Below are positions 6,819-27,567 of a stretch of DNA of 27,567 bases, in pieces (the stretch's first letter is position 1; each line of letters starts with the position of its first letter). The notes beneath the pieces were generated by a model. That model was not told where the DNA came from, ran no database searches, and saw only the letters and a list, made by a program, of their open reading frames with translations. The stretch is from Xanthobacteraceae bacterium (GTDB lineage: Bacteria > Pseudomonadota > Alphaproteobacteria > Rhizobiales > Xanthobacteraceae): positions 1 through 27,567 of the forward strand of contig JBPYFG010000403.1 of the NCBI GenBank assembly GCA_051986365.1, read 5' to 3'. The position numbers and the translations under genes were made by a program.

Positions 6819-6845
6819 TTGGCCCTTGCGGGGCGCGCAAAAAAG

Positions 6846-6965
6846 CGTCATTCCGGCCGATCGAAGCGAGTGCCGGAATCCATAGTCCCAGTATTCGAGA
6901 CTGACCGCTGACGCTGGGATTGTGGATTCCGGGCTCGCGAGCATCGCTCGCGCCCCCGGAATGAC
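6846..6965. repeat. CGTC-tagged REP-like composite palindrome (inverted dimer)
   Basis: Starts CGTC; terminal inverted repeat GTCATTCCGG (6847-6856)/CCGGAATGAC (6956-6965); inner stem CCGGAATCCATAGTCCCAG/CTGGGATTGTGGATTCCGG; side hairpin GCGAGC-ATC-GCTCGC. Confidence 0.85.
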
Positions 6966-25415: not shown

Positions 25416-26195
25416 TCAATAGAGGCCGGCGGGTCCGGTTCTGCTGGAAATAAGCTCGCGCGGTTGCGCGGCTGGCCGCGCTGGCATTTGTGCCGACATC
25501 CCGGCGCCGGTCGGCGCGTCTTGCATCACATCGCGCTTGCCGTCGTCGAGCGACACGAGGCGCGGGTCACTTGCCAACACGACCACTTTTGTTCCGATCC
25601 CGACGCGATTGTAAAGATCAATGATGTCGGCGTTCTGCAACCTGATGCATCCGCTCGAAACGCGCTTGCCGATCGAACTCGGATCGTTGGTGCCGTGGAT
25701 GCGATATTCGGTATTGCCGAGATAAAGCGCCCGCGCGCCCAACGGATTTCCGGGGCCGCCGCCGACCCAGCGCGGCAAATACGGCTGACGCGCCACCATT
25801 TGCGCCGGAGGAATCCAGTCTGGCCATTCGGACTTACGCGCGATCGTTTCAACACCGGACCAGGTGAAGCCCTGGCGTCCGACGCCGATGCCATAGCGCA
25901 TCGCCATGCCGTGACCGAGCGTCAAATAAAGAAAAGTATGCCCAGTATCGATGATGATGGTGCCGGGCGGCTCGTTGGTCGGATAGGTCACCATTTGGCG
26001 CCGAAACTGCGCCGGCAACTGCTCCGTTCCGGCCTCATCGTCCTGCTGTTGCGGCGCGTATTGCGACAAGGGCTGATCGAAGCGAAATGCTGGCGCGAAC
26101 GAAAGCGCCTGCGCAAAAACGGGACCGGCGGAGACCGCGACAATCGCAAGCGTTGCGATCGCGCGGCAAAGGCGTGCGCGGCTAATTGCTAACAC
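25416..26195 (-). CDS. L,D-transpeptidase (YkuD/ErfK family), exported
   Basis: PPGTIIIDT...LYL, RYGIGVGRQG, NPLGARALYLG, catalytic IHGT...SSGCIRL.N.D; start GTG 26195, 6 nt after GGGAGG; signal peptide ending PVFA-Q. Confidence 0.93.
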   Translation of the reverse strand: MLAISRARLCRAIATLAIVAVSAGPVFAQALSFAPAFRFDQPLSQYAPQQQDDEAGTEQLPAQFRRQMVTYPTNEPPGTIIIDTGHTFLYLTLGHGMAMRYGIGVGRQGFTWSGVETIARKSEWPDWIPPAQMVARQPYLPRWVGGGPGNPLGARALYLGNTEYRIHGTNDPSSIGKRVSSGCIRLQNADIIDLYNRVGIGTKVVVLASDPRLVSLDDGKRDVMQDAPTGAGMSAQMPARPAAQPRELISSRTGPAGLY

Positions 26196-26234
26196 GACAC
26201 ACCTCCCGTGCTGAAATGCCGTTCTGCCGATAAT

Positions 26235-26260
26235 AACCATCGAAGGGAACTTAAAGTTCC
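26235..26260 (-). promoter_or_regulatory. Putative sigma-EcfG (GSR) promoter of the L,D-transpeptidase
   Basis: Minus strand GGAAC-TTTAAGTTCCCTTCGAT(17)-GGTT, one mismatch to GGAAC-N16/17-CGTT, about 40 nt upstream of the start codon. Confidence 0.6.
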
Positions 26261-26458: not shown

Positions 26459-26776
26459 TCACGTCATGCAGCGTCCCACGATGTGCGCCAATCGTGGCGA
26501 TGAGATCGGCGAAAATGACCCCTCGCATCCGACTGGAATCTTCTGCGGCTTCGACGATTGTTCCTGCGTGCTCAAACCAGGTCGCGCGACGGTCGGAACA
26601 CTGGAGAGCGGGAGCCGGTCGCCCTTGAATTGCCGATTGACGGAGAAGCTTGGCGCCCTAGCGGCGATGCCGGCGCCAGCGGTTGGATCGGCGAAGAACG
26701 GGATGAGCCCGACAAAGAACAGGGCAAGCGCAGTTATTCCCAACGCGCCTGCGATGCGAACGAACAGCTTGGCCAT
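26459..26776 (-). CDS. Small exported/membrane-anchored hypothetical protein (about 105 aa) with C-terminal Cys pair
   Basis: ATG 26776 with GGAG SD; N-terminal hydrophobic segment; VNRQFKGDRL and GCEGSFSP...GRCM motifs recalled from small rhizobial hypothetical proteins. Confidence 0.75.
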   Translation of the reverse strand: MAKLFVRIAGALGITALALFFVGLIPFFADPTAGAGIAARAPSFSVNRQFKGDRLPLSSVPTVARPGLSTQEQSSKPQKIPVGCEGSFSPISSPRLAHIVGRCMT

Positions 26777-26864
26777 CGGATTGCTCCGCAGCGCTGATGC
26801 GACCACCCCTGCGATCGATCATGCACACGAAAATCCCCCGAGCTGACCACAACACCGCGGAGTT

Positions 26865-26889
26865 AACGCCCAAAGGCCCGTCGGGTTCC
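26865..26889 (-). promoter_or_regulatory. Sigma-EcfG (sigmaT/RpoE2-type) promoter of the small exported protein
   Basis: Minus strand GGAAC-CCGACGGGCCTTTGGG(16)-CGTT, an exact match to the GSR consensus, correctly oriented, in a phyR locus. Confidence 0.8.
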
Positions 26890-27010
26890 ATGGCCGGCCG
26901 CCGCTCACCGGGTCGTGATCTGGGGCCGGATTCGACCGCCAAACCGCATTTGCGGTCCTTGCGACACGTTGTGAGGGTAGGAACAAAGATGGGGCGCGGC
27001 ACTTGTCATG

Positions 27011-27101
27011 GCGAACGGCCATCCTTTCCCCCTCCCCCCGTGCTTGGCCGTTCAACGTTGGGCGCAGTCGATATGCCGATCGGCTGCGCCCTAACTTTTT
27101 T
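27011..27101 (+). ncRNA. Putative trans-acting small RNA with C-rich anti-SD loop (suhB/MmgR/alpha-r8-like architecture)
   Basis: Perfect 9-bp stem GAACGGCCA (27013-27021)/TGGCCGTTC (27045-27053) enclosing TCCTTTCCCCCTCCCCCCGTGCT, followed at once by a plus-strand intrinsic terminator; no plausible plus-strand CDS upstream. Confidence 0.7.
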
Positions 27102-27110
27102 GTTGTTGTT
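27057..27110 (+). terminator. Rho-independent terminator (plus strand)
   Basis: 13-bp stem GGGCGCAGTCGAT (27060-27072)/ATCGGCTGCGCCC (27079-27091) with one G-U pair and 6-nt loop, then TAAC-TTTTTTGTTGTTGTT; no U-tract in the minus direction. Confidence 0.85.
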
Positions 27111-27256
27111 TAAAGCGAGCGATAGAGCCACCAAGCCGAGCGATGCGGCAAATCTGATGTGCTTATGCGCTGCGGCGCACACGCCCGACAGGATCGGAGA
27201 AATTACATCGACAGCGTCACAGGGCTACGGCGTTCCACGGCCTCACACTGCGTCGA

Positions 27257-27567
27257 CTAGAGAGTCGCTTGGCGCTCGCTCGGCTTGCGCTCGCGCTGGC
27301 GCGCCTTACGGCCGAAAAACAGCGCCTGGCTGACGACGGCCGAGACCACGGCGACCTGGAACGGTTTTGCAATCAGGAAAGCCGGCTCGGGCCGTTGTCC
27401 GGTCAGGAAACGTTCCGGATAAGCAGTGATGAAGATCACCGGGACTTCAAACGAGCCAAGGAGTTCGTTCACCGCATCCAATCCCGAACTGCCGTCGGCG
27501 AGCTGAATATCGGCGAGGATTAATCCGGGCCGCTTCTGTTTCGCCAGAGCCAGTGCTTCGCTGTGGG
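27257..27567 (-). CDS. phyR: PhyR anti-anti-sigma response regulator, C-terminal receiver domain (5' part outside window)
   Basis: Reading the frame to the window edge gives HSEALALAKQKRPGLILADIQLADGSSGLDAVNELL...PVIFITAYPERFLTGQRPEPAFLIAKPF, the characteristic PhyR receiver sequence. Confidence 0.95.
   Translation of the reverse strand, partial: HSEALALAKQKRPGLILADIQLADGSSGLDAVNELLGSFEVPVIFITAYPERFLTGQRPEPAFLIAKPFQVAVVSAVVSQALFFGRKARQRERKPSERQATL

Follow-up and report, generated by a model that had tools for sequence, protein, structure and literature searches.

The window analysed here (27,567 nt; positions 1 to 27,567 of the forward strand of contig JBPYFG010000403.1, assembly GCA_051986365.1, Xanthobacteraceae bacterium) ends inside phyR, of which the 3' part is present on the minus strand. 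The 115-aa ORF on the other side of the intergenic region also lies on the minus strand, as the preliminary description had stated for both genes, and a small RNA (sRNA) gene is predicted between them on the plus strand. The alphaproteobacterial general stress response (GSR) is commonly presented as a partner switch between proteins, PhyR-NepR-EcfG, in which the nepR product is the anti-sigma factor and the phyR product the anti-anti-sigma factor. The features of the locus are as follows.

26193-26212, minus strand: initiation region of an L,D-transpeptidase gene, a candidate target (AGCACGGGAGG at 26212-26202, 6 nt, GTG at 26195-26193)
26459-26806, minus strand: 115-aa ORF for a small exported protein, from the ORF list
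26865-26889, minus strand: perfect EcfG promoter GGAAC-N16-CGTT, divergent from the sRNA and driving the gene at 26459-26806
26980-26984, plus strand: -35 element GGAAC of an EcfG-type promoter, read from the sequence and kept in related loci
27001-27004, plus strand: -10-like ACTT, 16 nt past the -35 element (family consensus nnTT)
27012-27101, plus strand: predicted sRNA transcript of about 90 nt, with a deduced 5' end and a 3' end within the T-tract
27013-27053, plus strand: 5' hairpin with a 9-bp stem and a 23-nt loop, from sequence, fold and family alignment
27013-27021, plus strand: 5' arm of stem 1, GAACGGCCA, read from the sequence
27022-27044, plus strand: exposed C-rich loop, the presumed seed, from conserved alignment columns
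27045-27053, plus strand: 3' arm of stem 1, TGGCCGTTC, with nine perfect pairs to the 5' arm
27060-27101, plus strand: intrinsic terminator with a 13-bp stem, a 6-nt loop and T6, found by the terminator scan on the plus strand only
27257-27567, minus strand: 3' part of phyR with the receiver domain (Response_reg), convergent with the sRNA and truncated by the contig end

The end of the sRNA is separated from the phyR stop by 156 bases. This arrangement recurs among relatives: phyR is convergent with the sRNA and at most 1.5 kb away in 28 of 29 family loci, and one 8-Mb family genome carries an sRNA copy 15 kb from phyR. Full-length phyR orthologues in related loci start with (V/L)STSQAVLQHLP(F/S)LRRY. 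On its other side, the sRNA shares a 140-bp spacer with the exported-protein gene, and this spacer holds two divergent EcfG-type promoters, one for each unit (minus strand for the protein gene, plus strand for the sRNA). The perfect GGAAC-N16-CGTT of the minus strand shows the form of the EcfG promoter in this genome.

The predicted RNA consists of two hairpins joined by a 6-nt linker. Direct reading of the sequence confirms the first one as originally described, with its 9-bp stem and a loop in which 21 of the 23 nucleotides are pyrimidines. The loop contains CCTCC (CCUCC in the RNA) at 27031-27035 and a near-invariant CCGUGCU at 27038-27044. The anti-Shine-Dalgarno-like CCUCC, to which the early reading gave prominence, is present but varies between genera, some of which carry CCCCCCAAGCCCCCC at this place, and the invariant core in the family alignment is a C-run followed by GUGC. 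The second hairpin (27060-27091) is G+C-rich, with 13 pairs including one G-T and a 6-nt loop, and has TTTTTT downstream at 27096-27101; in agreement with the earlier claim that it works on the plus strand only, the scan for terminators lists it on that strand alone. The plus-strand fold reaches -43.6 kcal/mol (z = -5.1), a value equalled by none of 200 shuffles, while the z-score of the minus strand is -2.8.

A GGAAC element had been proposed as a -35 box at a suitable distance upstream, and it is indeed found at 26980-26984 and retained in all 54 related loci, in the same register in 50 of them. At the -10 position, 53 of 54 loci have nnTT and 6 of 54 CGTT; in the window, ACTT agrees with the CGTT consensus in the TT only. 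In the genus alignment, the spacer between the two elements varies in sequence and keeps its length. Within the window alone the promoter motif does not exceed chance (4 found, 2.55 expected), and its significance derives from conservation across related loci rather than from window counts. On these grounds we infer that the sRNA promoter is of the EcfG type and that transcription would depend on σEcfG in vivo.

Sequences of the element are present in public RNA libraries. In an index search, RNA-library runs matched a 401-nt query in about one fifth to one quarter of its words, approximately the share of the sRNA alone. When assembled contigs from four metatranscriptomes of four studies (soil, plant) were mapped on 26700-27567, they covered 27010-27100 in all four studies and left both flanking spacers without depth; being assemblies, such contigs reveal neither the strand nor the level nor the true ends of a transcript. 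The empty spacers are partly an artefact, because the spacers are the least conserved part of the region and contigs of relatives cannot map there. Several contigs of runs X1, X8, and X9 extend upstream into the region with GGAAC or downstream beyond the terminator, which makes DNA carry-over or read-through possible. Two variants of the sequence in cDNA run X13 have an Illumina adapter fused at 27015 and 27016, which suggests a common, abundant 5' end near 27012-27015. Taken together, the metatranscriptome coverage gives modest support for expression of the sRNA.

BLAST detects the element in every one of the 24 genus genomes and gives no match in 16 genomes that represent other families of the order. 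Model R1, a covariance model trained on the genus sequences, matches 68 of 151 family genomes, distributed over 31 of 52 genera, and a family-wide model (R2) picks up further genera of the family; the covariance-model match in the window spans 27003-27104 with 114.5 bits. In the genus alignment GGAAC is invariant, the RNA body is highly conserved, and divergence resumes right past the T-tract. The family alignment used (A3) replaced an earlier one (A2), which was discarded for including antisense terminator matches. Among 38 family sequences, pairing holds in 97.9% of cells, and compensatory changes are seen at 14 of the 20 pairs; none of 500 shuffles scored as high, and the signal collapses when the partners are slid by 1-3 columns. 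Structural conservation in related genomes, put forward in the preliminary description as a check, is thus present. Its distribution between the hairpins is uneven. In the terminator stem, 12 of 13 pairs show compensatory changes and the sequence drifts by compensation. Stem 1 has 96% of its cells paired, and the closing pair of the 5' hairpin covaries (AU 15, GC 11, GU 5). Unlike the terminator stem, stem 1 and the loop are kept in sequence, and the loop is the most conserved sequence of all.

Public genome contigs contain the exact 21-nt loop word in 107 stretches; the 80 of these that were listed all come from uncultured MAGs of soil, peat or sediment, labelled mostly Xanthobacteraceae or Alphaproteobacteria. 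This places the host among the uncultured soil members of Xanthobacteraceae. Some family genomes are multi-copy, with six sRNA copies in G167 and two each in G147, G096, G059, G063, G067, and G137. Among eight extra copies located elsewhere in five genomes (loci L185-L192), seven keep GGAAC-N18-TT, and L190 is devoid of the promoter. The extra copies vary in loop detail (e.g., CCCCCCAAGCCCCCC).

These patterns bear on two other explanations. An element acting solely as a terminator or insulator between convergent units, its C-rich hairpin having no role in trans, would fit the terminator being the strongest structural element, its location at the phyR 3' end in most genomes, and the RNA-library contigs that read through it. 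This is nevertheless very improbable: the T-tract exists only on the strand opposite to phyR, all 54 loci preserve GGAAC-N16-nnTT at a constant distance, the loop is retained while the terminator stem drifts, extra copies far from phyR keep both promoter and loop, and the copy of the 8-Mb genome is 15 kb away from phyR. The plus strand also contains an open frame of 36 codons starting with TTG (27003-27113), which could point to a small protein, or the element could be the leader or riboswitch of a downstream gene. The frame was rejected on its indel pattern, since close relatives differ by one-base length changes inside it (C-run and linker), and it is not preceded by a Shine-Dalgarno sequence. 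As for a leader, the gene past the terminator is on the opposite strand, leaving nothing to lead into, and no Rfam riboswitch model matches; both versions have practically no probability. It is very likely that the element is a genuine gene for a regulatory RNA of about 90 bases, activated by EcfG and conserved beside phyR. Promoter, terminator, and phyR linkage all support the original proposal of an unannotated, GSR-linked RNA gene of this size on the plus strand.

With Rfam 15, the whole window yields no match at the gathering score. Lowering the threshold to E<=10 over 26800-27260 returns only the Streptomyces sRNA Scr6925 (E = 0.065), a terminator-driven hit at chance level. The suhB/MmgR family (alpha-r8, RF00519) gives no match at either threshold, and neither the cuckoo nor the alpha-r and BjrC families were matched in the Rfam searches. 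The sRNA resembles suhB/MmgR and cuckoo/CcsR as a small alphaproteobacterial RNA with a C-rich, anti-Shine-Dalgarno-like loop and a terminator hairpin; in contrast to this general likeness, their Rfam models do not match it even at E<=10, and the affiliation with suhB/MmgR or cuckoo considered at the outset had to be abandoned after this covariance check. Beyond the family, R1 and R2 retrieve only terminator-like matches lacking the C-loop, GGAAC, and phyR; R2 was run on 147 genomes of the order outside this family and on 150 genomes of the class. As there is neither an Rfam match nor an R2 relative outside the family, the RNA therefore represents a separate sequence family, absent from Rfam, of a known functional kind.

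That kind is exemplified by GsrN of Caulobacter crescentus, a σT-dependent sRNA of about 100 nt that is stabilised by Hfq, is processed to a 5' isoform, and can carry much of the protective output of the GSR (PMC5869019; bioRxiv 10.1101/344820). GsrN activates the katG and osrP leaders by pairing of its C-rich 5' loop with their G-rich tracts, and this base pairing was proven by compensatory mutations (Tien et al. 2018, PMC5869019; bioRxiv 10.1101/344820). Homologues of gsrN adjoin ecfG-nepR-phyR in most Caulobacteraceae (Tien et al. 2018, PMC5869019). The sRNA described here shares with GsrN the EcfG-type promoter motif, the 5' hairpin with an exposed C-rich loop followed by a terminator, and the position in the GSR locus, so that the functional comparison with GsrN made from the sequence was well chosen. 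However, Rfam and R2 (in the order and class genomes) detect no sequence relation, and the likeness is one of published anatomy. The katG leader marks a further difference from GsrN: examined as a conserved target in five genomes of the genus, it has no special complementarity to the sRNA and was rejected. In the relative G165, katG (C18:255794-257913; L182, L184) is in two pieces with a TGA between them and is possibly frameshifted or broken.

A second precedent is ReC64 of Rhizobium etli, an 88-nt RNA encoded downstream of phyR-tcrY (Jans et al. 2013, PMC3892343). For ReC64, 5' RACE and reporters established a σEcfG1 promoter, and expression is abolished in an ecfG1 mutant (PMC3892343). ReC64 belongs to Rhizobiaceae, another family, and R2 finds no sequence match there in the order-wide sample. 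Closer to the window, GsrN-like genes were predicted next to the GSR loci of Bradyrhizobium diazoefficiens and Rhodopseudomonas palustris (Tien et al. 2018, PMC5869019, Figure 9), solely from position and an EcfG site (PMC5869019). Our RNA is likened to these predicted genes by position and promoter, not by sequence. In GTDB, both species belong to Xanthobacteraceae, the family in which R1 finds the RNA. The main text of the Bradyrhizobium TSS paper does not mention this locus.

The gene is unannotated and without an Rfam family, and it is not a new type of RNA, as the GsrN/ReC64 kind has already been published. The novelty implied in the preliminary description does not hold up against ReC64 (PMC3892343), GsrN (PMC5869019), and the GsrN-like genes predicted within the family. 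Being both published and predicted for Xanthobacteraceae, this kind of RNA leaves the concept unchanged. What is added is a well-supported sequence family absent from Rfam, now with a covariance model, that is distributed over most genera of a dominant soil-bacterial family, uncultured lineages of peat and soil among them, and that is visible in soil and plant metatranscriptomes. For annotators it is a gene to add; for experimenters, the nepR, phyR, and L,D-transpeptidase initiation regions constitute testable targets.

The element is, with high confidence, a σEcfG-dependent, trans-acting sRNA of about 90 nt with a C-rich loop, of the GsrN/ReC64 kind. RNA polymerase with σEcfG would transcribe it on the plus strand from GGAAC-N16-ACTT, and the transcript would end at its own intrinsic terminator, the exact ends being those predicted above. 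The 23-nt cytosine-rich loop presented by the 5' hairpin would then pair with G-rich mRNA leaders and ribosome-binding sites, and the sRNA would add a post-transcriptional layer to the GSR, as GsrN does in Caulobacter. Pairing through the loop is the likely mechanism.

Titration of a protein, or mimicry of the 16S rRNA anti-Shine-Dalgarno sequence, would instead make the RNA a sponge or decoy without specific mRNA pairing. About 20 nt of the loop and the CCGGCC/GGCCGG of stem 1 are stricter than the structure needs, genome-wide pairing sites are numerous and unspecific, and rRNA is enriched in GsrN pull-downs for reasons unknown (PMC5869019; bioRxiv 10.1101/344820). Yet no result obtained here points to a protein partner, GsrN acts by base pairing as its compensatory mutations demonstrate, and complementary sites exist at the initiation regions of genes of the locus itself; a sponge or decoy is therefore improbable. 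In stem 1, CCGGCC/GGCCGG (27015-27020 with 27046-27051) is almost invariant across genera, beyond the needs of pairing, which hints at a sequence-specific recognition, e.g., by a protein, or at a processing site.

Returning to a trans-acting, pairing sRNA, candidate targets were ranked against 714 initiation regions, a background chosen to favour strong Shine-Dalgarno sites. ACGGGGG(G)A, which is complementary to loop UCCCCCCGU, precedes the nepR start throughout the genus, within an unusually G-rich ribosome-binding site (ACGGGGGA). The median duplex energy of nepR with the loops of the same genomes is -24.3 kcal/mol over 22 genus loci, in the 3% tail of the 714 regions. phyR has a rare Shine-Dalgarno sequence, GGGGAGGG, found at only about 13 initiation-like sites genome-wide and preceded by AGCAC in the subclade of the window; its median duplex energy over 26 genus loci is -24.0 kcal/mol (4% tail of the 714). 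In the L,D-transpeptidase initiation region, AGCACGG is the exact complement of loop positions 27038-27044, and about 12 of the 21 genus loci with the gene adjacent retain this block between diverging flanks; by energy, the site falls in the 14% tail of the background only. Presence of AGCACGG alone is weak evidence because the 7-mer has 606 occurrences in the genome. The gene belongs to the YkuD family and has its own GGAAC-N17-GGTT (26235-26260, minus strand) about 40 nt before the GTG. The GGAAC of this promoter is one arm of an inverted repeat, GGAACTTTAAGTTCC.

By complementarity, the initiation regions of nepR, phyR, and the L,D-transpeptidase gene are the most likely targets, as predicted from sequence. 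Among the local genes with strong Shine-Dalgarno sites proposed earlier as targets, the L,D-transpeptidase gene gains some support and the others none. GGGAGG shows no enrichment in the window (5 occurrences against 11 expected), and a genome-wide duplex scan is unspecific: 1369 sites reach -16 kcal/mol or better, and many of these lie within G-rich palindromic repeats. A scattered element of this type, approximately UCCCCCGCAAGCGGGGGAGGG (C202:741-766, C353:1920-1945 and 6837-6861, C283:3103-3125), dominates energy-based target searches for C-rich sRNAs and may be a REP-like element.

If the loop paired with the ribosome-binding sites of nepR and phyR and with the L,D-transpeptidase site, the sRNA might exert feedback on the switch together with feed-forward control. 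CCGUGCU would in that case target, through AGCACGG, the EcfG-driven L,D-transpeptidase of the same locus, and σEcfG output would tune the stoichiometry of its own partner-switch proteins while feeding forward onto cell-wall remodelling. This circuit is doubtful, although conceivable; to our knowledge, such feedback has been shown for no GsrN-like RNA. In Caulobacter, nepR-sigT mRNA with a predicted G-tract site co-purified with GsrN, an independent argument for the nepR site; against a functional role there, GsrN exerted no feedback on a GSR transcription reporter (PMC5869019; bioRxiv 10.1101/344820).

In two relatives (L008, around 2700-2750; L009), the nepR initiation region GCGAACGGGGGAAAAAUG is tandemly duplicated, with 2-3 copies. 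The in-frame MGERGKN... of the duplicated region is probably not the true N-terminus, and the duplication would multiply the G-tract complementary to the loop of the sRNA.
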